A stretch of 12,244 nucleotides of DNA from a virus (lineage: Duplodnaviria; Heunggongvirae; Uroviricota; Caudoviricetes): the IMG/VR virus record IMGVR_UViG_2681813321_000010. One strand, written 5' to 3'. Position numbers and translations under genes: made by a program. Of this stretch, positions 1-12,022 are shown piece after piece; the first letter of the stretch is position 1, and each line of letters opens with the position of its first letter. Under the pieces are notes generated by a model that saw only the letters and a program-made list of their open reading frames with translations, was not told the origin of the DNA and did no database searches.

Positions 1-135
1 TGCCTGGTGCCTCCAGGTGACGTTAACCAGTTAACAATTAACGCCGGATACAGAGAATCCACCCATAACACTGTTTTTGGTTTTAACTGTTCCGCGTGCG
101 CTCAGCCGCATTCACCGCATCACAAAATTCACTTT

Positions 136-193
136 AAAAACGGCGGCAGAGCAGTCACGGAGTAAAACTGATACCGCCAAACGTCACCAGAAA
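136..193 (-). ncRNA. dicF: DicF small RNA (cell-division inhibitor sRNA) with intrinsic terminator
   Basis: Minus-strand sequence TTTCTGGTGACGTTTGGCGGTATCAGTTTTACTCCGTGACTGCTCTGCCGCCGTTTTT matches my recollection of E. coli DicF; GGCGG/CCGCC stem followed by a T-run; located downstream of ydfC as in Qin. Confidence 0.8.
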
Positions 194-533
194 ATTGATA
201 ACAGAGGGCGTTGCAGCGGGGTTGTCGCTTAAGCGTATGGTCAACCTGACAACCCGGTGTCCTCAACGGGGAAGGAATAACCCCGCCATACTTACCGCCG
301 CGCCATTTCGCGGAGTGCCACAACCGGAAGCGCACGGTCGACGAAAATTTAACGACAGGCTATCTATGAACCAGCTACCTCGCCGTGCGCTTTCGCGTTA
401 TGGTCTGACTTTTCATGGAAATATCCTTTCAGTAAACTGTCAGTGCCGGATGCTCACCCATGTCCGGCGCACGCACTCCACCTCACCCGTGGAGAACTCC
501 TTAATTACCAACCTTAGCTTCGTTGGTTAGCTA

Positions 534-752
534 TTAACGCGGGTATGTAATCATTCTGGCAATGCTTAATGCCGCTGCTTTTTCCAGCCTGGTGATATCC
601 TGCTCCAGAGCGGACAGATTTTCAGCCTGCTTAGCCCTGGCTTCATTGGCCCATTTCAGATCCTGCGCTGCATTAATTTTCTGGCGCATCCACTCATAAA
701 GTTCATCATCGGTATAGTCTGGCGAGATGATGACGGGTTCTCGTTTCTGCAT
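534..752 (-). CDS. ydfC: YdfC, 72-aa Qin-type prophage protein
   Basis: 72-aa ORF in the track; GAGG ribosome-binding site upstream of the ATG; size and position after ydfB match the dicB operon. Confidence 0.8.
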   Translation of the reverse strand: MQKREPVIISPDYTDDELYEWMRQKINAAQDLKWANEARAKQAENLSALEQDITRLEKAAALSIARMITYPR

Positions 753-781
753 ACTGATTCCTCGCGGTGCTGCTTCGCTTA

Positions 782-910
782 TCAGCCGTTAGATTTTGCC
801 GAGCTGGAAAGCGCCTGTTTAAACTCACTGAAGCTGAGAGCTTCTTCGCCTTCGGCAAGGCCTTCGAAGTATTCTTCGTAAGCCTTTTCCATGATTGTGT
901 CGAAATCCAT
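782..910 (-). CDS. ydfB: YdfB, 42-aa small protein (below the ORF-track size cutoff)
   Basis: Manual translation of the minus strand gives MDFDTIMEKAYEEYFEGLAEGEEALSFSEFKQALSSSAKSNG; its ATG overlaps the ydfA stop (TGATATG); 42 aa matches known YdfB length. Confidence 0.75.
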   Translation of the reverse strand: MDFDTIMEKAYEEYFEGLAEGEEALSFSEFKQALSSSAKSNG

Positions 911-911
911 A

Positions 912-1067
912 TCACTCACCTGAGTTTCTTTCCAGCCAGCGACGGGCACCATTTTCGGTTTTAAACGTTTTGCTTCTGGTATACGTCATCGCGGTAAACG
1001 TGCCGTCCTGGTTGGGAAACACGCCGTACACCAGAGATTCGTTGTTGCCAAGATCGATAGTATCCAT
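912..1067 (-). CDS. ydfA: YdfA, 51-aa small protein
   Basis: Internal ATG of the 69-aa track ORF with a GAGG ribosome-binding site gives MDTIDLGNNESLVYGVFPNQDGTFTAMTYTRSKTFKTENGARRWLERNSGE; 51 aa matches YdfA; first gene after dicA as in Qin. Confidence 0.8.
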   Translation of the reverse strand: MDTIDLGNNESLVYGVFPNQDGTFTAMTYTRSKTFKTENGARRWLERNSGE

Positions 1068-1147
1068 GCTGACCTCATTTCCCCTTAACGCTGGGGTAGC
1101 GGAACTGTTTGCTGAGAACACCGTGCGGTGTGTTGATGCAAATAAGA

Positions 1148-1200
1148 TTAGCCATGGCTAACATATAGGTCAAGTGATTTTGTATGTTATGGCTAACATG
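1148..1200. promoter_or_regulatory. Putative DicA operator pair in the dicA-ydfA intergenic region (dicB-operon promoter region)
   Basis: Perfect palindrome TTAGCCATGGCTAA (1148-1161) and ATGTTA-TGGC-TAACAT (1185-1200) share TTAG/CTAA half-sites with the dicA-dicC intergenic palindromes. Confidence 0.5.
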
Positions 1201-1233
1201 ATTGATGTGGTAAAAGATAACTCATTGATGATG

Positions 1234-1641
1234 TTATCTTTTATTTGTCCGCTGACGGGCTTTTAGTAATTCTTCAAAGAGTTTATTGAAGTTTTTTACT
1301 CGAGCTCGCATTTCGGCGAGCTGGGTATCCTGTTCTGATTCTGGCAGTGCATTAAACAGCTCAAGGAGCTCTAGTTCTTTGGGGGATAAGGCAACTGGCT
1401 TCTCAACAGGTGGTGTTGGTTGCTTGTCTTCATCGCCAAATAGAATCCATGTTGGTGAGCATTGCAATACTTTGCTGAGGGCAAAAAGGTTCTTCCCTGT
1501 AGGTTCACTATCATCCCGTTCCCATTGTGATACAGACACATGGGAGATTTTCAGGGCTTTAGCAAGAGACCTTTGGGTGTGTTTGAGGTTTTTCCGACGA
1601 TACCTAATGCGTTCGCCGATAGTTAAATTTTTTGTTTCCAT
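1234..1641 (-). CDS. dicA: DicA, HTH (Xre-family) repressor of the dicB operon; CI-like immunity repressor
   Basis: 135-aa product METKNLTIGERIRYRRKNLKHTQRSLAKALKISHVSVSQWE... matches my recollection of E. coli K-12 DicA; N-terminal HTH; divergent from dicC. Confidence 0.92.
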   Translation of the reverse strand: METKNLTIGERIRYRRKNLKHTQRSLAKALKISHVSVSQWERDDSEPTGKNLFALSKVLQCSPTWILFGDEDKQPTPPVEKPVALSPKELELLELFNALPESEQDTQLAEMRARVKNFNKLFEELLKARQRTNKR

Positions 1642-1643
1642 AG

Positions 1644-1708
1644 TTAGCTAATGCTAAATCGTATTGACTATGTTTTTGTTAACATCTATTTTGTTAGTTA
1701 TGACTAAC
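1644..1708. promoter_or_regulatory. dicA-dicC divergent control region: two operator palindromes and a candidate rightward promoter
   Basis: TTAGC-TAAT-GCTAA (1644-1657) abuts the dicA start codon; TTGACT (1664-1669), 17-bp spacer, TATTTT (1687-1692); GTTAGT-TATG-ACTAAC (1693-1708) just downstream of the -10. Confidence 0.55.
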
Positions 1709-1724
1709 AATAAAGGTGTTTTAA

Positions 1725-1955
1725 ATGCTTAAAACTGACGCTCTTTTGTATTTCGGTTCAAAAACAAAACTTGCACAAGCAGCAGGTATTCGTTTGGCTT
1801 CGCTTTATAGCTGGAAAGGGGATTTAGTTCCCGAAGGTCGCGCGATGCGTCTACAGGAGGCATCTGGCGGGGAGCTTCAGTATGATCCCAAAGTTTATGA
1901 TGAATATCGTAAGACGAAGCGGGCGGGGCGGTTGAACAATGAAAATCACTCCTGA
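1725..1955 (+). CDS. dicC: DicC, Cro-like regulator
   Basis: 76-aa product MLKTDALLYFGSKTKLAQAAGIRLASLYSWKGDLVPEGRAMRLQEASGGELQYDPKVYDEYRK... matches my recollection of DicC; divergent from dicA. Confidence 0.9.
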   Translation: MLKTDALLYFGSKTKLAQAAGIRLASLYSWKGDLVPEGRAMRLQEASGGELQYDPKVYDEYRKTKRAGRLNNENHS

Positions 1956-2460
1956 ACAGGCTCGTGAGGCTCTGGATGCCTGGATATGTCGACCAGGAAT
2001 GACACAGGAGCAGGCGACGATATTAATCACTGAAGCATTCTGGGCTTTGAAAGAGCGCCCGAACATCGATGTTCAGCGTGTCACAGATGAAGGTGGCGCG
2101 GTTGATCAGCGAGCGCTTGGCGTTAATCGAGTGAAGATATTCGAACGCTGGAAGGCTATCGACACCAGGGATAAGCGTGAAAAGTTCACGGCGCTAGTGC
2201 CTGCGATTATGGAGGCTATCCGGATTAGTGATTTCAGGTTGTATCGTGAGATCAGTGATGGAAAAAGTATTACGTACATGATCGCCGGGTTAAATAAAGA
2301 ATATGGCGATGTGGTGGAATCCGGACTGCTTTTTGCAGATCCTGCCGTTGTAGATCGTGAAACTGACGAACTTATAGAAAAAGCAATTGCTTTCAAGCTT
2401 GCGTATCGACAGCAATACCAACAAAAAGCTGGATGGAATTATGAGTCTTCTTTTTGCTGA
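1939..2460 (+). CDS. YdaT-like protein in the CII position (putative regulator)
   Basis: 173-aa ORF overlapping the dicC 3' end; segment VKIFERWKAIDTRDKREKFTALVPAIMEAI resembles the YdaT-family core as I recall it; family assignment is from memory only. Confidence 0.6.
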   Translation: MKITPEQAREALDAWICRPGMTQEQATILITEAFWALKERPNIDVQRVTDEGGAVDQRALGVNRVKIFERWKAIDTRDKREKFTALVPAIMEAIRISDFRLYREISDGKSITYMIAGLNKEYGDVVESGLLFADPAVVDRETDELIEKAIAFKLAYRQQYQQKAGWNYESSFC

Positions 2461-3406
2461 ACGCCCACTGGTTATAAACACGCAGCTGGCAATGAAAATT
2501 GGCTTAAACGAAGCCATTGTTTTGCAACAACTGCACTACTGGTTGAGAGATACCAACTCCGGCATGGAATGTGATGGTGTTCGCTGGATTTATAACACAA
2601 CGGAACAATGGCTGGAACAGTTCCCATTCTGGTCAGAGTCAACGTTAAAGCGCGCGTTTGCAAGTCTGAAAACGCTGGGGCTTTTGCGTTGTGAAAAGCT
2701 CAATAAATCAAAGCGCGATATGACCAATTTCTACACGATCAACTACGGGAGCGAGCTTTTAGATGGTGGCAAATTGAGCGAATCCATCGGTTTAAAATGC
2801 GCCGCTCCATCAGGTCAAAATGACACGATGGAAGAGGTCAAAATGAAACGCTCCATTGGTTCAAAACGACTCAATGTCATCGGGTCAAAATGGCCTGATG
2901 ATCTTACAGAGAATACAACAGAGATTACTACAGAGAATAAAAAGACTTCTCGTCCGGAAGCTTCGCAACCGGACCCGCAGACGGTTGAACAGGATTTTTT
3001 AACCCGACACCCTGACGCGGTTGTGTTCAGTGCGAAAAAACGCCAGTGGGGCAGCCAGGAAGATTTGGCGTGTGCGCAGTGGATCTGGGGGCGAATCGTG
3101 AGTCTTTACGAGCAGGCCGCCAGCGATGATGGCGAGATTTCGCGACCGAAAGAACCCAACTGGACCGCATGGGCCAACGACGTGCGCACAATGCGGATGC
3201 TGGATGGCAGAACTCACAGACAAATTTGTGAAATGTTTGGTCGGGTGCAGCGGGATCCATTCTGGGTAAAAAATATCATGAGTCCGTCAAAGCTTCGCGA
3301 AAAATGGGATGAACTGGTTATCCGCCTGGGGCGTTCGTCTGTACAGCGTTGTGTGAATCATATTTCTGAGCCGGATACCGAAATTCCGCCGGGCTTCAGG
3401 GGGTAA
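2441..3406 (+). CDS. Replication initiator, lambda O-like (N-terminal DNA-binding domain, TE-rich linker, C-terminal domain)
   Basis: Track ORF begins at TTG 2387; the ATG at 2441 overlaps the upstream stop (ATGAGTCTT...TGA) and is the likelier start; contains iterons plus an AT-rich tract inside the coding sequence, as lambda O does. Confidence 0.75.
   Translation: MSLLFAERPLVINTQLAMKIGLNEAIVLQQLHYWLRDTNSGMECDGVRWIYNTTEQWLEQFPFWSESTLKRAFASLKTLGLLRCEKLNKSKRDMTNFYTINYGSELLDGGKLSESIGLKCAAPSGQNDTMEEVKMKRSIGSKRLNVIGSKWPDDLTENTTEITTENKKTSRPEASQPDPQTVEQDFLTRHPDAVVFSAKKRQWGSQEDLACAQWIWGRIVSLYEQAASDDGEISRPKEPNWTAWANDVRTMRMLDGRTHRQICEMFGRVQRDPFWVKNIMSPSKLREKWDELVIRLGRSSVQRCVNHISEPDTEIPPGFRG
2783..2941 (+). 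repeat. Putative replication origin inside the O-like gene: five iterons followed by three 12-bp A-rich repeats
   Basis: Iterons of consensus about TCCATCGGGTCAAAATG starting at 2783, 2806, 2829, 2852, 2876 (23-24 bp period); then ACAGAGAATACA / ACAGAGATTACT / ACAGAGAATAAA at 2906-2941. Confidence 0.7.
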
Positions 3407-3446
3407 GTGTTAATTTCTGGTCATGAGGTAATTTTCAGGAGGGCTT

Positions 3447-3869
3447 GTGGCAAAAGTTTTTACACAAGAAGAGCGGGAAAAAATTAAAGGGCAGGTTGTT
3501 GAACTCGTACGCCGGAGTGGGCGTGAGACGTTACGGCAACTGGAAGTCAAGACAGGTGCGACAAGATATCTGATGAGCGTTCTCGCAAGAGAGCTGGTTG
3601 CCAGCGGCGATGTATACAACTCTGGTTACGGGTTATTCCCGTCTGAACAGGCGCGTAAGGACTGGCAAAATGCCCGTAAAAAGCTCTCAAGGGCAAAGCT
3701 GAAGGAACCATCTGCGGTTGATCCGGACCTTATCTGGTCATTACCTGACGGAGAAATACGTCGCTACGACAGGCGTCAGAACATAATCTGTCGCGAGTGC
3801 CGGAAGAGTGAAGTTATGCAGCGCATACTAGCATTCTATCAGGGAAATGCTCGATATTTATTGAAGTGA
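3447..3869 (+). CDS. Hypothetical 140-aa protein in the P position after the initiator (C-terminal CxxC)
   Basis: GTG start 4 nt after AGGAGG (3437-3442); the paralog at 7824 has ATG at the same relative position after AGGAGG; conserved between the two modules. Confidence 0.75.
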   Translation: MAKVFTQEEREKIKGQVVELVRRSGRETLRQLEVKTGATRYLMSVLARELVASGDVYNSGYGLFPSEQARKDWQNARKKLSRAKLKEPSAVDPDLIWSLPDGEIRRYDRRQNIICRECRKSEVMQRILAFYQGNARYLLK

Positions 3870-4121
3870 TGAGATTAAAGTTTATTAGTTCAGATATTGA
3901 TTGGCTCTTTTGTGGAGTAGGGTAGAGTTAGTGTGTTTGTCTGCTTGGTGCCAGCAGCGGATATGTTTAACAACAGAAAGCATTCAGCATGGTTAGTGGA
4001 TTTGCAAAGTGGATTAGGATTTGAGAAACTTTGATGAAGTTGTAAAGCTTGTTTCTATAAAAATAGAAATTTAACTAATAGTTAAACACACCTCCAGCTT
4101 CATTGAAAAGGATTATTAGCT

Positions 4122-4547
4122 ATGATTGATCCACTTATTAGAAACTTACAGAGTGATATTGCACTACTCCAGCTTTATATCGCGCAACGCAAACAGGCAG
4201 GCTTTCATGACATGGAAAGAATAATTGAGTCATTGACCATCTTTATGTTTCGCGCGCTGAAAATGGGTGAACTGGTAAACATGAATCAGATTAAAGTTAA
4301 TTTTCCCGCCATTGATTTAGCTGATAATAAAAACATGATAGCAGTTCAAGTTACTACGAATGCAAGTCCAGCAAAAATTAAAAAAACTATCGAATCTTTT
4401 GAGAAAATAAATGAAATAGGAGAGAGTCTGAAAGATAAATACTCTACTTTATATATTTTTGGTTTTAACTGTTCCGCGTGCGCTCAGCCGCATTCACCGC
4501 ATCACAAAATTCACTTTAAAAACGGCGGCAGAGCAGTCACGGAGTAA
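4122..4547 (+). pseudogene. Probable 5' fragment of an AT-rich cargo gene, truncated at the repeat junction (about 4456); the ORF tail runs into the dicF region
   Basis: Strongly AT-rich codons up to 4455, then the last ~30 codons lie in repeat sequence whose copy-1 equivalent (74-165) is preceded by unrelated DNA; ORF end overlaps dicF copy 2 on the opposite strand. Confidence 0.45.
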
Positions 4548-4575
4548 AACTGATACCGCCAAACGTCACCAGAAA
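4518..4575 (-). ncRNA. dicF: DicF small RNA, second copy
   Basis: Identical to 136-193 at offset 4382; in this copy the repeat ends about 60 bp downstream of the terminator, so no dicB can follow. Confidence 0.8.
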
Positions 4576-4915
4576 ATTGATAACAGAGGGCGTTGCAGCG
4601 GGGTTGTCGCTTAAGCGTATGGTCAACCTGACAACCCGGTGTCCTCAACGGGGAAGGAATAACCCCGCCATACTTACCGCCGCGCCATTTCGCGGAGTGC
4701 CACAACCGGAAGCGCACGGTCGACGAAAATTTAACGACAGGCTATCTATGAACCAGCTACCTCGCCGTGCGCTTTCGCGTTATGGTCTGACTTTTCATGG
4801 AAATATCCTTTCAGTAAACTGTCAGTGCCGGATGCTCACCCATGTCCGGCGCACGCACTCCACCTCACCCGTGGAGAACTCCTTAATTACCAACCTTAGC
4901 TTCGTTGGTTAGCTA

Positions 4916-5134
4916 TTAACGCGGGTATGTAATCATTCTGGCAATGCTTAATGCCGCTGCTTTTTCCAGCCTGGTGATATCCTGCTCCAGAGCGGACAGA
5001 TTTTCAGCCTGCTTAGCCCTGGCTTCATTGGCCCATTTCAGATCCTGCGCTGCATTAATTTTCTGGCGCATCCACTCATAAAGTTCATCATCGGTATAGT
5101 CTGGCGAGATGATGACGGGTTCTCGTTTCTGCAT
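4916..5134 (-). CDS. ydfC: YdfC, second copy
   Basis: 72-aa ORF identical in protein to 534-752. Confidence 0.8.
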   Translation of the reverse strand: MQKREPVIISPDYTDDELYEWMRQKINAAQDLKWANEARAKQAENLSALEQDITRLEKAAALSIARMITYPR

Positions 5135-5163
5135 ACTGATTCCTCGCGGTGCTGCTTCGCTTA

Positions 5164-5292
5164 TCAGCCGTTAGATTTTGCCGAGCTGGAAAGCGCCTGT
5201 TTAAACTCACTGAAGCTGAGAGCTTCTTCGCCTTCGGCAAGGCCTTCGAAGTATTCTTCGTAAGCCTTTTCCATGATTGTGTCGAAATCCAT
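5164..5292 (-). CDS. ydfB: YdfB, second copy (42 aa)
   Basis: DNA identical to 782-910 at offset 4382. Confidence 0.75.
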   Translation of the reverse strand: MDFDTIMEKAYEEYFEGLAEGEEALSFSEFKQALSSSAKSNG

Positions 5293-5293
5293 A

Positions 5294-5449
5294 TCACTCA
5301 CCTGAGTTTCTTTCCAGCCAGCGACGGGCACCATTTTCGGTTTTAAACGTTTTGCTTCTGGTATACGTCATCGCGGTAAACGTGCCGTCCTGGTTGGGAA
5401 ACACGCCGCATACCAGAGATTCGTTGTTGCCAAGATCGATAGTATTCAT
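5294..5449 (-). CDS. ydfA: YdfA, second copy (51 aa, two substitutions relative to copy 1)
   Basis: Same internal ATG as copy 1; product MNTIDLGNNESLVCGVFPNQ... Confidence 0.8.
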   Translation of the reverse strand: MNTIDLGNNESLVCGVFPNQDGTFTAMTYTRSKTFKTENGARRWLERNSGE

Positions 5450-5529
5450 GCTGACCTCATTTCCCCTTAACGCCGGGGTAGCGGAACTGTTTGCTGAGAA
5501 CACCGTGCGGTGTCTTGGTGGAGATTAAT

Positions 5530-5579
5530 TTAGAATAACCTAACAAATGTAGCAAGTATTTTTGTTAGATTGGTCTAAC
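5530..5579. promoter_or_regulatory. Putative operator pair downstream of the dicA-like gene (module 2 leftward-operon control region)
   Basis: TTAGAATAACCTAA (5530-5543) and palindrome GTTAGA-TTGG-TCTAAC (5564-5579); same TTAG/CTAA half-site logic as module 1. Confidence 0.45.
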
Positions 5580-5616
5580 AAAAAGAGTGAGGGAATCTAA
5601 GTATCTGAAAGGAGTG

Positions 5617-6024
5617 TTATTTTATTGATTTGTTTTTACGTGCTTTAAGCATTTCTTCGAAGAGTTTATTGAAATTCTCTACTCTTGCGCGCATTTCAGA
5701 CAGTAAGGCTTCCTGCTCGGAGGAGGGAAGAGCATCGAATAATTCGATCAATTCTTTGTGGCTGGGAGTTAACTCGGTTTCCACATGAAGTTCTTGTGCT
5801 GGCACTGGTGCCTTGTCTTCGTCACCAAACATTAGCCATGTAGGCGAGCACTTCAGCGCATCAGCTAAAGCAAATAACCGCTTCCCGACCGGTTGGGTTT
5901 CGTCTCTTTCCCATTGTGAAATTGTGACGTGAGCTACCCCAGCGAGGCGTGCAGCTTCTCGTTGTGTTAGGCGTAATTCTTTTCGTCGTGCCAGAACTCG
6001 CTGGCCTAGGGTTCTTGTATCCAT
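5617..6024 (-). CDS. DicA-like HTH repressor, divergent paralog (CI-like immunity repressor of module 2)
   Basis: 135 aa; C-terminal half nearly identical to DicA (...CSPTW..FGDEDK...EMRARV.NFNKLFEE.LKAR), N-terminal HTH diverged (QREAARLAGVAHVTISQWE). Confidence 0.85.
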   Translation of the reverse strand: MDTRTLGQRVLARRKELRLTQREAARLAGVAHVTISQWERDETQPVGKRLFALADALKCSPTWLMFGDEDKAPVPAQELHVETELTPSHKELIELFDALPSSEQEALLSEMRARVENFNKLFEEMLKARKNKSIK

Positions 6025-6030
6025 AGTTAG

Positions 6031-6090
6031 GTAATTCTAATTTTTCTTGACTTAGGTATCCCGCGCACATTACTGTTAGGAATATCTAAC
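6031..6090. promoter_or_regulatory. Module 2 divergent control region with operator palindromes
   Basis: TTAGGTAATTCTAA (6031-6044) abuts the dicA-like start; TTGACT at 6047-6052; GTTAGGAATATCTAAC (6075-6090) precedes the dicC-like gene. Confidence 0.45.
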
Positions 6091-6104
6091 AAGAGGGGGC
6101 TTTG

Positions 6105-6332
6105 ATGCTTAAAGTTGACGCAATTACTTTTTTTGGCAGCAAAACAAAACTTGCCAATGCCGCAGGAGTGAAACTGGCAAGTGTTGCTGCATGGGGGGAA
6201 CTGGTTCCTGAAGGTCGCGCGATGCGCCTGCAAGAGGCATCCGGCGGGGAACTTCAGTACGACCCCAAAGTTTATGACGAATATCGTAAGGCAAAGCGGG
6301 CGGGGCGGTTGAACAATGAAAATCACCCCTGA
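6105..6332 (+). CDS. DicC-like Cro-type regulator (paralog)
   Basis: Track ORF starts at TTG 6102; ATG at 6105 preceded by GAGGGGG; product about 85% identical to DicC by eye. Confidence 0.85.
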   Translation: MLKVDAITFFGSKTKLANAAGVKLASVAAWGELVPEGRAMRLQEASGGELQYDPKVYDEYRKAKRAGRLNNENHP

Positions 6333-6837
6333 ACAGGTTTGTGAGGCTCTGGATGCCTGGGTATGCCGACCAGGAATGACACAGGAGCAGGCGACGATAT
6401 TAATCACGGAAGCATTCTGGGCTCTGAAAGAACGCCCGAACATCGATGTTCAACGCGTCACGTTTAATGATGGCGAGGTTGATCAACGGGCGTTGGGCGT
6501 TAACCGGGTGAAGATATTCGAACGCTGGAAAGCTATCGACACCAGGGATAAGCGGGAAAAATTCACGGCGCTGATTCCGGCAATTATGGAGGCTATCCGG
6601 ATCAGCGATTTCAGGTTGTATTGTGAAATTACTGACGGAAAAAGCATTACGTACATGATCGCCGGGTTAAACAAAGAATATGGTGATGTGGTGGAGTCCG
6701 GGCTGCTTTTTGCGGATCCATCTGTTGTGGAACGTGAGACTGACGAGCTTATAGAAAAAGCTATTGCTTTCAAGCATGCGTATCGTCAGCAATACCAACA
6801 AAAAGCTGGATGGAATTATGAGCCTTCTTTTTGCTGA
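6316..6837 (+). CDS. YdaT-like protein in the CII position (paralog of 1939-2460)
   Basis: 173 aa, roughly 90% identical by eye to the module 1 copy; same overlap arrangement with neighbouring genes. Confidence 0.6.
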   Translation: MKITPEQVCEALDAWVCRPGMTQEQATILITEAFWALKERPNIDVQRVTFNDGEVDQRALGVNRVKIFERWKAIDTRDKREKFTALIPAIMEAIRISDFRLYCEITDGKSITYMIAGLNKEYGDVVESGLLFADPSVVERETDELIEKAIAFKHAYRQQYQQKAGWNYEPSFC

Positions 6838-7783
6838 ACGCCCACTGGTTATAAACACACAGCTTGCGATGAAGATTGGCTTAAATGAAGCCATTGTGTT
6901 GCAGCAGTTGCATTACTGGTTGAGAGATACCAGTTCCGGTATGGAATGTGACGGGGTTCGCTGGATTTATAACACAACAGAACAATGGCTGGAACAGTTC
7001 CCGTTCTGGTCAGAGTCAACGTTAAAACGCGCATTTGCAAGTCTGAAAACGCTGGGGCTTTTGCGTTGCGAAAAGCTCAACAAATCAAAGCGTGATATGA
7101 CTAATTTTTACACGATTAATTACGAGAGTGAGCTTTTAGATGGTGGCAAAGTGAGCGAATCCATCAGGTCAAAATGCGCCGCTCCATCGGGTCAAAATGA
7201 CACGATGGAAGAGGTCAAAATGGCACGCTCCATTGGTTCAAAACGACCCAATGTCATCGGGTCAAAATGGCCTGATGATCTTACAGAGAATACAACAGAG
7301 ATTACTACAGAGAATAAAAACACTTCTCGTCCGGAAGCTTCGCAACCGGACCCGCAGACGGCTGAACAGGATTTTTTAACCCGACACCCTGACGCGGTTG
7401 TGTTCAGTGCGAAAAAACGCCAGTGGGGAAGTCAGGAAGATTTGGCGTGCGCACAGTGGATCTGGGGACGAATCGTGAGTCTTTACGAGCAGGCTGCCAG
7501 CGATGATGGCGAGATCACGCGACCGAAAGAACCAAACTGGACCGCATGGGCCAATGACGTGCGCACAATGCGGATGCTGGATGGCAGAAGCCACAGACAA
7601 ATTTGCGAAATGTTTGGTCGGGTACAGCGAGATCCATTCTGGGTAAAAAACATCATGAGCCCGTCAAAGCTTCGCGAAAAATGGGACGACCTGGTCATCC
7701 GCCTGGGGCGTTCACCTGTACAGTGTTGTGTGAATCATATTTCTGAACCGGATACCGAAATTCCGCCTGGTTTCAGGGGATAA
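6818..7783 (+). CDS. Replication initiator, lambda O-like (paralog)
   Basis: ATG at 6818 overlaps the upstream stop exactly as in module 1; carries the equivalent iterons. Confidence 0.75.
   Translation: MSLLFAERPLVINTQLAMKIGLNEAIVLQQLHYWLRDTSSGMECDGVRWIYNTTEQWLEQFPFWSESTLKRAFASLKTLGLLRCEKLNKSKRDMTNFYTINYESELLDGGKVSESIRSKCAAPSGQNDTMEEVKMARSIGSKRPNVIGSKWPDDLTENTTEITTENKNTSRPEASQPDPQTAEQDFLTRHPDAVVFSAKKRQWGSQEDLACAQWIWGRIVSLYEQAASDDGEITRPKEPNWTAWANDVRTMRMLDGRSHRQICEMFGRVQRDPFWVKNIMSPSKLREKWDDLVIRLGRSPVQCCVNHISEPDTEIPPGFRG
7160..7318 (+). repeat. Putative replication origin of module 2 (five iterons plus A-rich 12-bp repeats)
   Basis: Iterons begin at 7160, 7183, 7206, 7229, 7253, the same positions as module 1 at offset 4377. 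Confidence 0.7.
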
Positions 7784-7823
7784 GTGGTGATTTTAGGGCA
7801 TAAAGTAATGTTCAGGAGGACTT

Positions 7824-8231
7824 ATGGCAAAAGTATTTACACAGGAAGAGCGGGAAAAAATTAAAGGACAGGTGGTGGAACTCGTGCGCCAGAGCGGTCG
7901 TGAGACGTTACGGCAACTGGAAGCTAAAACAGGTGCGACAAGATATCTGATGAGCGTTCTTGCCAGAGAGCTGGTTGCCAGTGGTGATGTATATCACTCT
8001 GGCTATGGGGTGTTCCCGTCAGAACGGGCTCGTAAGGACTGGCAAAACGCCCGCAAAAAACTCTCGAGGGCAAAGGTGAAGAAACCTGTTGTGGTTGATC
8101 CGGGCCTTATCTGGACATTACCCGACGGAGAAATACGCCGCTACGACAGGCGTATGAACATAATCTGTCGCGAGTGCCGGAAGAGCGAAGTTATGCAGCG
8201 TGTATTGGCGTTCTATCAGGGATATGCCTAG
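7824..8231 (+). CDS. Hypothetical 135-aa protein in the P position (paralog of 3447-3869)
   Basis: ATG 4 nt after AGGAGG; about 90% identical by eye to the module 1 copy. Confidence 0.75.
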   Translation: MAKVFTQEEREKIKGQVVELVRQSGRETLRQLEAKTGATRYLMSVLARELVASGDVYHSGYGVFPSERARKDWQNARKKLSRAKVKKPVVVDPGLIWTLPDGEIRRYDRRMNIICRECRKSEVMQRVLAFYQGYA

Positions 8232-8599
8232 AATTGTCACAGGTAATGAAATTAAAGAGTATTGGTTCGGATATGAATTGACATTTTCGCGGCACAGAGC
8301 TAAAAATAGCCTACTTGTTGGTTTTGTGTGAAAAGCAGACATTTTGAGGCTCAGGATTTGTTATCAAATAAGACCAATACTTATCTATATTAATACACAT
8401 TAAATACTGTGCAATACATTATTGCATTTTATTAGATAAGCGATATTTAGGGAAAAGAAAAGTCATAGAAAACAGGCCGCTATTTGTTGTTGGATTTTAT
8501 AGGCTATATCTAGATTATCTTGCCACTGCGGTCTCTGTTTACCTAACAGCTTGGGCTTCTTTGCATGCAAGTTTGTAATAACAAGAGTAATCAAACGGA

Positions 8600-9631
8600 A
8601 TGTCTATTAATCCTAAACTTAAGCGTATCGCGCGACGCTATCCAGCGTTATTCCAATATGAGTCCCCCTATATGGCAAGAAAATTAATAATATTCGGCAA
8701 CGGTCTCGGTATGGCTTTAGATCCTGCTCACTTCTCCTTAGACAGAGCGTTGGAAGAAATTTGGCATCGCCCCAATTTTTTAAAAGATATCCACAAGCAA
8801 CTTATCGAGCGTTGTCTTCAGCGGCAAGGTCCACCAGAAGGAGAACATGAGTTGGATACCCTTCACCAGGCTGTCACATATTGTAAAGCTCTTGCTCAAA
8901 TTGGAGAGGGGAACGTGCATTGGCTTACTGAAGATGGACTAAACTTCCCCAAAATTACCGCCACTTATATTCACAAAGTTGCAACCAGGTTGCATAATTA
9001 CGATAAAGGTTTGCCACAAAGATTCGAAAATGCGCTTGTGGAGTTTGTAAAGAACACACACTCACATATCGCGACATTAAACTATGACAAATTATTATAC
9101 AATTCATTCATAGATAATGATATATTCAACGGGTATGATGGGGTTTTAGTTGATGGGATGCTAAGCCACGGATTTTCCTCTGCAGCGCTCGAACGGAAAT
9201 ACAATCGTAGGTTTGGTTATTATTTGCACTTGCATGGTTCACCACTATTTATTAATCAGCATGAAAATGTTTTAAAACTTTCACGCTCACAACTTACTCT
9301 TGACATAGATGAACCTAGTGAGCATATAGTGTTAACTCATATAAAAAGAAAACCGTCAGTTATAGCAGCATCTAATGTTCTTTCTACGTACTGGGATTAT
9401 TTGCAGTTTGCATTATTTGAATCAGAAGAAATAATATTGTTTGGTTACTCTGGTCTCGATATTCACCTTAACCTGCTTATTCGACCTTACCTAACCTCTA
9501 AGCCTTTAAGAGTAATTGAGTGGAGCGGTGCTGGTGAACAAAACGCTCGTGAGATATATTGGAAAAACCAGTTGAGACGGGAAGTTACTGTAATTAGGTT
9601 GGATAACATCACTGATTTTATTGATTGGTAG
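8600..9631 (+). CDS. SIR2-like (SIR2_2-type) single-domain protein, candidate NAD-consuming defence or abortive-infection effector
   Basis: 343 aa, AT-rich codon usage; ordered motifs LIIFGNGLG (Rossmann-like), TLNYDKL (sirtuin-type N/D), YLHLHGS (His), ILFGYSGLD, in the same order as SIR2-like domains such as Thoeris ThsA; preceded by about 370 bp of AT-rich DNA. Confidence 0.6.
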   Translation: MSINPKLKRIARRYPALFQYESPYMARKLIIFGNGLGMALDPAHFSLDRALEEIWHRPNFLKDIHKQLIERCLQRQGPPEGEHELDTLHQAVTYCKALAQIGEGNVHWLTEDGLNFPKITATYIHKVATRLHNYDKGLPQRFENALVEFVKNTHSHIATLNYDKLLYNSFIDNDIFNGYDGVLVDGMLSHGFSSAALERKYNRRFGYYLHLHGSPLFINQHENVLKLSRSQLTLDIDEPSEHIVLTHIKRKPSVIAASNVLSTYWDYLQFALFESEEIILFGYSGLDIHLNLLIRPYLTSKPLRVIEWSGAGEQNAREIYWKNQLRREVTVIRLDNITDFIDW

Positions 9632-9701
9632 CGCAATGCGAAGTTAAAGAGGCAGCCTCATATTTATCAGAGCTGGTGTACGTCCAATACAGGAGGTTAT
9701 C

Positions 9702-9791
9702 GTGCTGGTTCTCAAATGCGCGCTGGCTATTGCGGCTGTAGTGGCAATTTATTGTCTTGCTATTGTTCTTATGGATCGCCTTTCTGATTGA
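9702..9791 (+). CDS. Candidate 29-aa hydrophobic single-helix peptide (VLVLKCALAIAAVVAIYCLAIVLMDRLSD)
   Basis: GTG start 5 nt after a perfect AGGAGG (9691-9696); uniformly hydrophobic core of about 20 residues; below the ORF-track size cutoff. Confidence 0.4.
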   Translation: MLVLKCALAIAAVVAIYCLAIVLMDRLSD

Positions 9792-10002
9792 TTTTATATT
9801 GGCGAGGTGACGGGAGTTAAGTAGAATTGCTGCGGGTGCTTGAGGCTGTCTGCCTCGGGCATGCCACCGTAAGGCAGACAGAGAAAAGCCCCAGTTAACA
9901 TTACGCGTCCTGCAAGACGCTTAACATTAATCTGAGGCCCAATCTATGCTTCACAAACGTAGGTTAGCCTCTTACGCGCCGAAAGGCAAGGAGAAGCAGG
10001 CT

Positions 10003-10158
10003 ATGAAGCAGCAAAAGGCGATGTTAATCGCCCTGATCGTCATCTGTTTAACCGTCATAGTGACGGCACTGGTAACGAGGAAAGACCTCTGCGAGGTACG
10101 AATCCGAACCGGCCAGACGGAGGTCGCTGTCTTCACAGCTTACGAACCTGAGGAGTAA
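10003..10158 (+). CDS. hokD: HokD (RelF), Hok/Gef-family type I membrane toxin
   Basis: MKQQKAMLIALIVICLTVIVTALVTRKDLCEVRIRTGQTEVAVFTAYEPEE matches my recollection of HokD and the Hok signature (TRK.LCE.R...G..EVA.F.AYE); the track ORF from 9946 is an in-frame upstream extension. Confidence 0.85.
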   Translation: MKQQKAMLIALIVICLTVIVTALVTRKDLCEVRIRTGQTEVAVFTAYEPEE

Positions 10159-10226
10159 GAGACCAGGCGGGGGAGAAATCCCTCGCCACCGCTGATGTGT
10201 CAGGCATCCTCAACGCACCCGCACTT

Positions 10227-10253
10227 AACCCGCTTCGGCGGGTTTTTGTTTTT
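10227..10253 (+). terminator. Intrinsic terminator after hokD
   Basis: CCCGC-TTCG-GCGGG stem-loop (10229-10242) followed by TTTTTGTTTTT. Confidence 0.8.
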
Positions 10254-10266
10254 ATTTTCAACGCAT

Positions 10267-10296
10267 TTGAAGTTCTGGACGGTGTCGGAATAGAAT
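10267..10296 (+). promoter_or_regulatory. Candidate sigma70 promoter for the 83-aa gene
   Basis: TTGAAG (10267-10272), 18-bp spacer, TAGAAT (10291-10296); lies just after the hokD terminator. Confidence 0.4.
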
Positions 10297-10374
10297 CAAA
10301 AATACTTAAGTAGCGCGCAGGGATAAGAGGGATGGTCCCTTAAAGGGGAGAGCTAATTATCCGGAAGGATTCTG

Positions 10375-10626
10375 ATGATGAACATCGAAGAACTGCGTAA
10401 AATTTTTTGTGAAGATGGCCTCTATGCTGTGTGCGTTGAAAATGGAAATATTGTTAGTCATTACCGCATTGTGTGTTTGCGAAAGAATGGGGCTGCGTTA
10501 ATTAATTTTGTGGATGGTCGAGTGACAGACGGATTTATCTTGCGCGAAGGTGAGTTTGTCACTTCATTACAGGCACTGAAAGAGATCGGAATAAAAGCTG
10601 GCTTTTCTGCTTTTTCAGAAGAATAA
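10375..10626 (+). CDS. 83-aa hypothetical prophage protein, possibly the Rem homolog
   Basis: GGAAGG 6 nt upstream of the ATG; same size as Rem (83 aa) and same position between hokD and the ydfU-like gene as in Qin; I cannot recall the Rem sequence to confirm. Confidence 0.65.
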   Translation: MMNIEELRKIFCEDGLYAVCVENGNIVSHYRIVCLRKNGAALINFVDGRVTDGFILREGEFVTSLQALKEIGIKAGFSAFSEE

Positions 10627-10692
10627 ACTCATCTACAATCTTGCGCGGGGCTGAACTCCCGCTGAGTAACACCGTGCCGCCGGAGGAAACCG

Positions 10693-10971
10693 ATGGCACG
10701 CAACGCAAAATATTACAATCATGATAATTCGACCGTTCTTGCCCACACGCACGAGCGGTATTCTCACGCATTTAAGTCAGACTGGTACCAGCATCCCCCA
10801 TGCACTGAAGAACAGGCCGAATGGCTCATTCAGTGTTACCGCAGGCGCGGATGCGAGGTTAAAAAAGCCCTTAGCCTCGACTACCGTCACTGGATAATCT
10901 CCGTCGGGCTTCCTTACTCCGAACGCCCACCGCGTCTGTCCCGCACATTCCAGCAACGCATCTGGAGGTAA
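10693..10971 (+). CDS. 92-aa hypothetical protein
   Basis: GGAGG 7 nt upstream of the ATG; stop immediately precedes the next gene's start. Confidence 0.6.
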   Translation: MARNAKYYNHDNSTVLAHTHERYSHAFKSDWYQHPPCTEEQAEWLIQCYRRRGCEVKKALSLDYRHWIISVGLPYSERPPRLSRTFQQRIWR

Positions 10972-10972
10972 C

Positions 10973-12022
10973 GTGCGGGTATTACTTCGACCTGTTCTGG
11001 TACCGGAACTCGGGCTGGTGGTCCTTAAGCCCGGTCGCGAATCACTGCCGGTTTTTCATTGCGGCAGGGTGCTGGTGGAGCCGGAACCGAAAAGCATGCG
11101 CGGTCTGCCGTCCGGAGTCGTCCCTGCCGTTCGCCAGCCGCTGGCGGAGGATAAATCATTACTGCCATTTTTCAGCGATGAGCGTGTGATTCGTGCTGCT
11201 GGCGGCGCTGGCGCACTGTCTGACTGGCTCCTGCGTCATGTCAAATCCTGCCAGTGGCCTCATGGTGACTACCATCACAGTGAAACCGTCATACATCGTT
11301 ATGGTACCGGCGCAATGGTGTTGTGCTGGCACTGCGACAACCAGCTGCGCGACCAGACCTCCGAATCACTCGGGCAACTTGCTCACCAAAACCTGTCTGC
11401 ATGGATGATTGACGTCATACGCCATGCAATGAATGGCTCGCAGGAACGGGAATTATCGCTGGCTGAATTATCCTGGTGGGCGATCCGCAATCAGGTGGCG
11501 GACGCGCTACCGGAAGCGGTATTACGTCGTTCGCTGGGGTTGCGTGCGGAAAAAATCCGCTCAATGTACCGTGAAAGCGACATCGTACCGGGAGAGCAGA
11601 CCGCCACCAGCATACTGAAACAGCGCACAAAAAATCTTGCGCCGCTGCCTCACGCCCACCAGCAACAGAACCCGCCACAGGAAAAGACGGTGGTCAGCAT
11701 TGCTGTTGATCCGGAGTCTCCGGAATCTTTAATGAAGCGACCTAAACGTCGCCGTTGGGTAAATGAGAAATATACGCGCTGGGTAAAGACACAGCCGTGT
11801 GCGTGTTGTGGTAAGCCAGCCGACGATCCCCATCACCTGATTGGTCATGGTCAGGGCGGAATAGGGACAAAAGCCCACGATATTTTCACGCTACCGTTGT
11901 GCCGGGAGCATCACAACGAACTTCATGCTGATCCGCTGGCATTTGAAGAAAAGCATGGTTCCCAGATTGATTTAATTTTTCGTTTTCTTGATCGCGCCTT
12001 TGCAACCGGCGTGCTCGGGTAA
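10973..12022 (+). CDS. DUF968-family prophage protein (YdfU-like) with a C-terminal HNH-like Cys/His motif
   Basis: 349 aa; GTG start after GGAGG; C-terminus CACCGKPADDPHHLIGHG...LPLCREHHNELHA resembles HNH/zinc-binding nuclease motifs; size and synteny match Qin ydfU. Confidence 0.7.
   Translation: MRVLLRPVLVPELGLVVLKPGRESLPVFHCGRVLVEPEPKSMRGLPSGVVPAVRQPLAEDKSLLPFFSDERVIRAAGGAGALSDWLLRHVKSCQWPHGDYHHSETVIHRYGTGAMVLCWHCDNQLRDQTSESLGQLAHQNLSAWMIDVIRHAMNGSQERELSLAELSWWAIRNQVADALPEAVLRRSLGLRAEKIRSMYRESDIVPGEQTATSILKQRTKNLAPLPHAHQQQNPPQEKTVVSIAVDPESPESLMKRPKRRRWVNEKYTRWVKTQPCACCGKPADDPHHLIGHGQGGIGTKAHDIFTLPLCREHHNELHADPLAFEEKHGSQIDLIFRFLDRAFATGVLG

Follow-up and report, generated by a model that had tools for sequence, protein, structure and literature searches.

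How a SIR2-like gene that stands alone in a defective prophage serves its bearer is the question raised by IMGVR_UViG_2681813321_000010, a Caudoviricetes sequence of 12,244 nucleotides (nt) that is referred to below, at its full length, as the window. The gene in question is an open reading frame (ORF) at 8600-9631 on the plus strand, encoding up to 343 amino acids (aa). Its product represents a distinct minimal family of SIR2 proteins that resembles the SIR2 subunit of SIR2-HerA, has no partner and fails the defining architecture of SIR2-HerA, Thoeris, DSR, Avs5 and SIR2-APAZ/pAgo alike. As a single-gene cargo, the gene is inserted between DUF977 and hokD, in a variable slot of a defective lambdoid (Qin/Rac-like) prophage. 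As to its function, we lean slightly towards a one-gene abortive-infection system, i.e., a minimal, self-contained enzyme of the immune ("SIRim") type that hydrolyzes nicotinamide adenine dinucleotide (NADase).

Fold and active site of the SIR2-like protein

The motifs FGNGLG, TLNYD, HLHG and FGYSGLD, which the initial annotation had read as the ordered motif set of a SIR2-like NAD-binding domain, are all present in the sequence and stand in that order. The SIR2-like fold itself was borne out by a Pfam match, a structural model and a comparison with solved structures. SIR2_2 (PF13289) was found in residues 156-302 of the 343-aa form, scoring 26.1 bits and thus above its gathering score of 24.5 (E 1e-5). 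The predicted model is a single domain, in which strand beta-1 and its glycine loop are followed by a helical insertion of about 110 residues (~20-130) and then by the remaining Rossmann sheet. The fold begins at residue 4, and the model ends at residue 319.

Conservation was assessed in 57 homologs sharing 57-89% identity with the window protein. In the glycine-rich loop, conservation is 90% or more at G9, N10, G11 and G13. The segments T135-D139 (TLNYD) and H186 to F193 (starting with HLHG) are invariant, as are G258, Y259, G261 and D263 of FGYSGLD. Two family-specific motifs are likewise invariant, namely HIVLTH (H218, V220, L221, T222 and H223, with K227 following) and IHKVAT. Asn137 and His188 are predicted to be catalytic by analogy with N112 and H152 of ThsA and with N163 and H206 of human FAM118B. 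FAM118B needs these two residues to process NAD, and it must form filaments to be active (PMC12700824). The window protein has only two cysteines (48 and 71) and no CxxC, and therefore lacks the Cys4 zinc module of canonical sirtuins.

Among solved structures, the SIR2 subunits of SIR2-HerA/Nezha are by far the closest, helical insertion included, with scores of 17.9-19.7 and 267-276 of the 319 residues aligned. Lower scores were obtained for ThsA (14.7), KomC (14.4), canonical sirtuins (~13), Avs5 (12.5) and FAM118B (11.2). The predicted fold is nearer to defense SIR2s than to canonical sirtuins, and this ranking puts the protein in the branch that Bonhomme et al. describe as immune-type ("SIRim"). 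Sequence searches were less telling. All PADLOC matches were to SIR2 models and all were weak (E 5e-5 for the window protein, 4e-8 at best in the family). No match was found in NCBIfam, the best PHROGs hit had an E-value of 0.3, and phmmer and profile searches of the PDB sequences returned only a spurious match to HmuT (E 0.11).

Start codon and promoter region

An identical gene is listed in RefSeq as "SIR2 family protein" (WP_000101550.1). Its start is the internal Met25, at 8672 of the window, giving a protein of 319 aa. An equivalent start with the pattern M-x-RKLIIFGNGLGM is found in nearly all of the 794 database homologs. The 24 codons upstream of it are missing or interrupted across most of the family. 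In the closest subclade (71-99% identity), the extension has the same exact length, an open frame and an LRYPxLF motif. Since the extension is kept open there, 8672 is considered the core start of the family and 8600 the start of a possible long form; the 24 codons may encode a genuine N-terminal peptide, or they may act as a conserved leader or regulatory element. Further upstream, a promoter-like site (TTGACA-18-AAAAAT, 8278-8307) matches at 10 of 12 positions, and the cargo gene is presumed, from such sequence signals, to have its own promoter within 8281-8599.

Comparison with known SIR2 systems

SIR2-HerA/Nezha (PDB 8w9l, 8yhx, 8j4u, 8sub) is the best structural match of the window protein, but identity is only 14-16%, the PADLOC SIR2 models match at no better than E 1e-5 to 1e-8, and its SIR2 subunits have about 340-400 aa compared with 319 aa. 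In its proposed mode of action, the window protein is most like the SIR2 effectors of SIR2-HerA, Thoeris, DSR and Avs5. No HerA gene is present in the window, where the neighbors are DUF977 and the mini-ORF/hokD block, nor in the 87 homologous loci described below.

A second system of the same proposed kind is sole-Sir2, a CRISPR-supervised stand-alone Sir2 that is a NADase in vitro and of which a homolog protects E. coli against T2 and T4 (bioRxiv 10.1101/2024.12.27.630466). As in sole-Sir2, a single gene encodes one small SIR2-like protein. According to the published description, which is the basis on which the two are set apart, sole-Sir2 is about 440 aa long and has an additional, non-SIR2 substructure at the N-terminus and, at the C-terminus, a SIR2 domain described as DSR2-like, whereas the fold of the 319-aa window protein starts at residue 4 and is closest to that of the SIR2 subunit of SIR2-HerA.

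The remaining systems differ more clearly in architecture. ThsA of Thoeris carries a ligand-binding SLOG or Macro domain at its C-terminus and is accompanied by the TIR-domain protein ThsB, whereas the window protein is single-domain and has no TIR gene nearby. DSR1 and DSR2 have about 1,000 aa and a large non-SIR2 sensor region, in contrast to 319 or 343 aa for the window protein and 310-365 aa for its family. Avs5 carries a STAND region that the window protein does not have. The SIR2-APAZ proteins of short prokaryotic Argonaute (pAgo) systems (SPARSA) combine APAZ with a pAgo; the window protein has neither an APAZ region nor an Argonaute neighbor, and its matches to Aga_SIR2 are weak and partial (E 3e-6). 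The human proteins FAM118B and FAM118A (SIRal) are single-domain SIR2_2 proteins as well, but they form a vertebrate-specific clade, two paralogs are needed for activity, and they are much more distant than the SIR2 of SIR2-HerA.

Proteins of the DUF4917 family (PF16263) belong to the same Pfam clan. Among them, PD-T7-2A is an E. coli defense SIR2 from the two-gene system PD-T7-2, which includes a HerA-like ATPase, and SliP of Campylobacter jejuni is reported to be a secreted deacetylase (PMC10421069). The window protein itself does not match DUF4917 at E<=1; several homologs have precomputed matches, some of which are marked weak. PDC-S21 of PADLOC, a single-gene defense candidate, is similar in length (336 profile positions). 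Its profile matches 47 of 57 family members, at a best E-value of 3.5e-9, over the N-terminal two-thirds only (residues 4-209). The match being partial and far below family-level scores, this homology is considered remote. A literature search found no papers on PDC-S21, and nothing on this family for SIR2 in papers on integron-cassette defense.

The gene had been put forward as a candidate for an undescribed module. This holds in so far as neither PADLOC v2 nor NCBIfam has a family-level model; it does not hold in the strict sense, as the protein is already named in RefSeq as a member of the SIR2 family and sole-Sir2 has been published.

Single-gene cargo in a variable prophage slot

The insert that carries the gene can be delimited on both sides. 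On the left, homology to module 1, the first of two tandem lambdoid early regions in the window, and to a SMEK-carrying prophage (L008) ends at 8280, which is 49 nt past the DUF977 stop codon. On the right, the block upstream of hokD that is common to SIR2-less prophages resumes at 9649-9659. The SIR2-specific insert is therefore the segment between these edges (Table 1). Its GC content is 38.1%, compared with 48.3% for the remainder of the window.

In other E. coli prophages, the DUF977-hokD slot is occupied by QueH with a methyltransferase remnant, a SMEK-domain protein, an alpha/beta hydrolase or hypothetical genes. The SIR2-like gene with both junctions was found in 46 of 5,426 complete E. 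coli genomes, a patchy distribution that includes pathotypes such as O55:H7, O111:H2 and enterotoxigenic E. coli (ETEC) from pigs. The varied content of the slot and the patchy presence of the gene support the "cargo slot" of the initial annotation, as do the shared flanks in related prophages and the deviant GC content of the insert. In module 1, the same slot carries the remnant of a defense-associated SMEK-domain gene, which, like the patchy distribution in E. coli, is a point in favor of defense.

Distribution and genomic context of the family

A profile search of 1.84 billion representative proteins returned 362 clusters, 200 of them at E<=1e-30. Nearly all have 310-365 aa and are matched end to end; the family is compact, discrete and single-domain. 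Taking one genome per species, 80 loci were collected from Gamma-, Beta- and Alphaproteobacteria and from a small number of further phyla.

For the partner search, all ORFs within 6 kb of the gene were clustered in 87 loci from many genera. No neighbor family occurs in more than 5 of the 87 loci and none is HerA-like, and a conserved partner within this distance was rejected on these grounds. The protein had been noted as stand-alone in the window, and it is partnerless and single-domain across these loci as well.

Close homologs (67-82% identity) were inspected one by one. In Vibrio parahaemolyticus, a homolog with 75% identity is exactly one integron cassette (locus L094, ORF 8001-8960), bracketed by attC-like imperfect palindromes of about 122 nt (7851-7973 and 8971-9092). 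The array has nine such ~122-nt repeats; an IntI-like integrase (5773-6735) and cassettes with CcdAB and Mrr lie beside the homolog. The evidence for a cassette comes from this locus alone; a scan of all homologs for downstream attC sites was too strict and missed the sites of L094 too. Since the V. parahaemolyticus copy is one cassette and the window copy a 1.37-kb insert, the gene is mobile as a single gene.

Other close homologs lie in islands of various kinds. In Citrobacter farmeri, the gene is located between a type II restriction-modification (RM) system (restriction endonuclease E 6e-222) and Hachiman, in an integrase-bounded island. In Serratia plymuthica, it has a PDC-M36A-like gene on one side and SoFic on the other, and the S. 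rubidaea copy shares its island with SMC-like, MComp1 and CTD1 genes as well as with an insertion sequence fragment. The Pantoea copy adjoins P2-type Ogr and DinI, the Chromobacterium copy has a Bro-N gene nearby, and in Klebsiella and Aeromonas the gene forms a solitary islet flanked by housekeeping genes. Among the 145 immediate neighbors in the 80 further loci, given as raw counts, defense families, integrases and ordinary metabolic genes are mixed. The defense families include PbeA, MADS, AriA, type I RM specificity subunits and DISARM/BREX-type helicases.

Some side observations concern family members and their neighbors. The C. farmeri island also encodes a 376-aa protein (L092:6613-7743) between the RM system and the SIR2-like gene/Hachiman pair; without a Pfam or PADLOC match, it is another uncharacterized defense-island gene. 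Two Vibrio homologs, P0042 (506 aa) and P0044 (541 aa), carry 190-220 additional residues at the N-terminus, which form a domain unmatched in Pfam. These domains are homologous to each other and only 30% identical (E 8e-12), while the SIR2 cores are 67-68% identical to the window protein. As the extra domains have diverged and the cores are conserved, the domain is a fast-evolving add-on and a candidate sensor. In four Alphaproteobacteria, a conserved upstream ORF of about 200 aa runs up to, or into, the start of the SIR2-like gene in the same orientation, possibly as a two-gene version of the system. Neither the Vibrio extensions nor the alphaproteobacterial ORF matched Pfam or PADLOC, and no similarity between them was detected.

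Proposed function and alternative explanations

Beyond the fold, the conserved active site, the lack of a conserved partner, the single-gene mobility and the mobile-element and defense-island contexts, we infer the chemistry, the trigger, the mode of activation and the anti-phage effect of the proposed abortive-infection NADase. The protein would be expressed in the lysogen from its own promoter and kept inactive. A cue from an infecting phage would activate it, and its oligomeric state would probably change in the process, as happens in SIR2-HerA, ThsA, Avs5 and FAM118B. The activated protein would then hydrolyze NAD+, and the loss of NAD+ would halt both the growth of the infected cell and the replication of the phage. 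Sole-Sir2 offers a precedent for such a single-gene system.

Several observations weigh against a defense function. No family member was found by tblastn in 50,697 phage genomes or by Foldseek among the viral structures of BFVD, and plasmid occurrence amounts to one in 72,556, a distant match in Marinobacter. Identities of 57-82% across genera are unusual for fast-evolving sensors, and no sensor domain is evident in the window protein. Many homologs are flanked by housekeeping genes, including PFOR, MetRS, ThiC and GatB, and the defense neighbors are known as raw family counts without background correction. Four genera of Rhodobacteraceae (38-43% identity) have the gene in conserved synteny, 44 nt downstream of pncB. 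Finally, the closest structural relatives depend on HerA for activation, and purified Sir2 of type III SIR2-HerA alone shows no NADase activity in vitro (PMC13434337).

A more far-reaching version of the proposal is put forward tentatively, and we would not expect it to hold. The 319-aa protein would be the smallest self-sufficient SIR2 immune protein, a sensor-effector in which the insertion (~20-130), with IHKVAT and HIVLTH, directly reads a phage cue and triggers an oligomerization-dependent NADase without HerA, TIR, STAND, pAgo or any other partner. The Vibrio domain and the alphaproteobacterial ORF, which is translationally coupled, would be specificity modules gained later, and the pncB-linked copies would be domesticated.

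The alternative that survives best, although we regard it as unlikely, is a NAD-dependent enzyme with no part in defense. It could be a deacylase, an ADP-ribosyltransferase or a regulator of NAD turnover, acting on a bacterial or host-cell substrate in the manner of SliP or of resident sirtuins, and carried as a fitness or virulence moron. Some homologs have precomputed DUF4917 matches, and the DUF4917 protein SliP is the secreted deacetylase mentioned above (PMC10421069). Moreover, many loci lie amid housekeeping genes, conservation is high between genera, and the E. coli carriers include the pathotypes named above. The Rhodobacteraceae subclade is also to be considered here. There, pncB (encoding nicotinate phosphoribosyltransferase, NAPRTase, of NAD salvage) is followed after the gap by the SIR2-like gene and then, on the opposite strand, by an ArfB-like gene with an RF-1 domain. 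Because this synteny is conserved, these copies look like resident genes and hint at a NAD-metabolic or regulatory role for at least this subclade, which suggests a resident, NAD-salvage-linked and possibly housekeeping branch. The anti-phage claim of the initial annotation is supported only by context in close homologs (the integron cassette, the RM/Hachiman island, SoFic and the SMC-like/MComp1/CTD1 island) and weakened by the housekeeping synteny of distant ones.

With still lower probability, the gene is an orphaned SIR2 subunit of the SIR2-HerA type, either an inert remnant or one that needs a HerA-like ATPase encoded elsewhere. The structural ranking, with the shared helical insertion, speaks for it, as does the requirement of PD-T7-2A, a DUF4917/SIR2_2 protein, for a HerA-like partner; Sir2 of type III SIR2-HerA is also without NADase activity by itself (PMC13434337). 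In contrast, neither HerA nor another conserved ATPase adjoins the gene in any of the 87 loci, across many genera. The family is full-length with invariant catalytic motifs, and decay is therefore unlikely. Furthermore, the gene travels as a single integron cassette, sequence identity to the SIR2 of SIR2-HerA is low, and the PADLOC SIR2 models match weakly.

It is very improbable that the gene serves the prophage itself, be it as a counter-defense factor, such as a decoy upsetting SIR2-based complexes of the host or a consumer of NAD-derived immune signals, or as a lysis or lysogeny gene read through from the early rightward operon. Prophage cargo slots carry defense and anti-defense genes alike. 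The gene directly follows the replication genes in the same orientation, and in 8231-8600 no terminator-like site was found on the plus strand. However, it is absent from the 50,697 sequenced phages and from BFVD, most homologs lie outside prophages, and the catalytic residues, which a pure decoy would not need, are invariant.

Least tenable is a single toxin-type operon of the SIR2-like gene, the 29-aa mini-ORF and hokD, which share a strand and short gaps with merely a weak terminator-like hairpin between them: it is essentially refuted by the presence of the mini-ORF/hokD block, at 92-93% identity from about 9649, in prophages that carry QueH or SMEK and not SIR2, and hokD also has a promoter-like site and a complete hok/sok regulatory region of its own, with no hok neighbor among the homologs of other genera (87 loci, ORFs within 6 kb).

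The link to the mini-ORF and hokD that had been considered for the window is not upheld by these results, given the recurrence of the block without SIR2 and the intact regulatory region of hokD. Co-transcription is possible, and it is neither required nor specific to SIR2. Of the readings weighed here, the one-gene abortive-infection NADase is the one we retain, with the slight preference stated at the outset.

Further features of the window

The coordinates are compiled in Table 1.

Table 1 Positions of the SIR2-like gene, its motifs and other features in the window, and of features in homologous loci (given with their locus number)
Feature	Position	Strand	Remark
SIR2-specific cargo insert	8281..9648		1,368 bp; one gene and ~390 nt of upstream non-coding DNA
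AT-rich upstream region	8281..8599	+	~35% GC; contains promoter-like sites
N-terminal extension (343-aa form) or conserved leader	8600..8671	+	24 codons, optional
Core coding sequence	8672..9631	+	Stand-alone SIR2-like (SIRim-type) protein, 319 aa and stop
FGNGLG	8693..8710	+	Glycine-rich loop for NAD binding, following strand beta-1 (residues 4-8 of the model)
TLNYD	9074..9088	+	Predicted catalytic Asn137
HLHG	9227..9238	+	Predicted catalytic His188
HIVLTH	9323..9340	+	Family-specific motif, placed by the model in a loop or strand that separates the His motif from helix 227-233
FGYSGLD	9440..9460	+	C-terminal Rossmann motif of SIR2_2-type proteins, inside the Pfam SIR2_2 match
29-aa ORF	9702-9791	+	Candidate small membrane peptide or toxin
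Weak terminator-like hairpin	9726-9745		Between the SIR2-like gene and hokD
Promoter-like site of hokD	9799-9827		
hok/sok regulatory region	9834-10008		Rfam RF01794, 116 bits
isrK-like match	10162-10248	+	Sub-threshold, 24.9 bits against a gathering score of 50
Strong intrinsic-terminator-like hairpin	10227-10244		Closes the isrK-like match
DicF small RNA genes	141-192, 4523-4574	-	Rfam RF00039, 72.5 bits each; one per module start
SMEK-domain gene, 5' fragment	4122-4547	+	Cargo of module 1
~200-aa alphaproteobacterial ORF	L058:9342-10001, L070:9388-9993, L079:9402-10004, L084:6362-6976		
pncB-linked loci	L078, L086, L088, L090, ~8665-11630		

Downstream of the cargo gene, the very hydrophobic 29-aa ORF VLVLKCALAIAAVVAIYCLAIVLMDRLSD is preceded by a strong Shine-Dalgarno sequence (AGGAGG). 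It has no RefSeq annotation and no Pfam or PADLOC match, and may encode a small membrane peptide or toxin. Just 3' of hokD, an isrK-like match below the gathering score ends in a strong hairpin resembling an intrinsic terminator.

The window contains two tandem, diverged copies of a lambdoid early (immunity/replication) region, 74-3903 and 4456-8280, with 87% identity. In each module, the repressor gene is followed by cro-like, YdaT-like and O-like genes and then DUF977, and a DicF gene lies near the start. The cargo of module 1 is the 5' fragment of a SMEK-domain gene that matches SMEK_N of Pfam (E 1e-22) and Aga_REase-PNTD1-PNTD2 of PADLOC (E 1e-20); this truncated gene is related to pAgo-associated effectors. 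The module junction ends the fragment after about residue 115. In strain PC-NDM34, a full-length SMEK protein of 299 aa occupies the same slot. The junction (~4455-4466), at which SMEK is fused to the second DicF-proximal block, was found in none of the 5,426 complete E. coli genomes, and strain FDAARGOS_1059 carries the two modules in different prophages, with over 1 Mb between them. Either the source strain truly has a recombinant or tandem prophage, or the assembly is chimeric at this point.

Significance

The depletion of NAD+ by SIR2 proteins is a major theme in bacterial immunity and, via FAM118B, in that of vertebrates. Nearly every characterized system pairs the SIR2 effector with a separate sensor domain or partner. 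If the proposed function is correct, a compact and widely transferred family that consists of the SIR2 fold only would provide a simple model for how a NADase is kept off and how it is switched on. Its bare architecture and its occurrence as an integron cassette make it a clean test case for the sensing of infection without a sensor.

To a specialist, defense is the role to be expected of a SIR2 gene found in a prophage hotspot. If this is true here, the defective Qin/Rac-like prophages that pathogenic E. coli carry (O55:H7, O111 and pig ETEC) would have one more defense gene, and such a gene bears on host range in phage therapy. If the protein is instead an enzyme outside defense, the linkage to pncB in Rhodobacteraceae would point to an unrecognized branch of NAD metabolism or its regulation.

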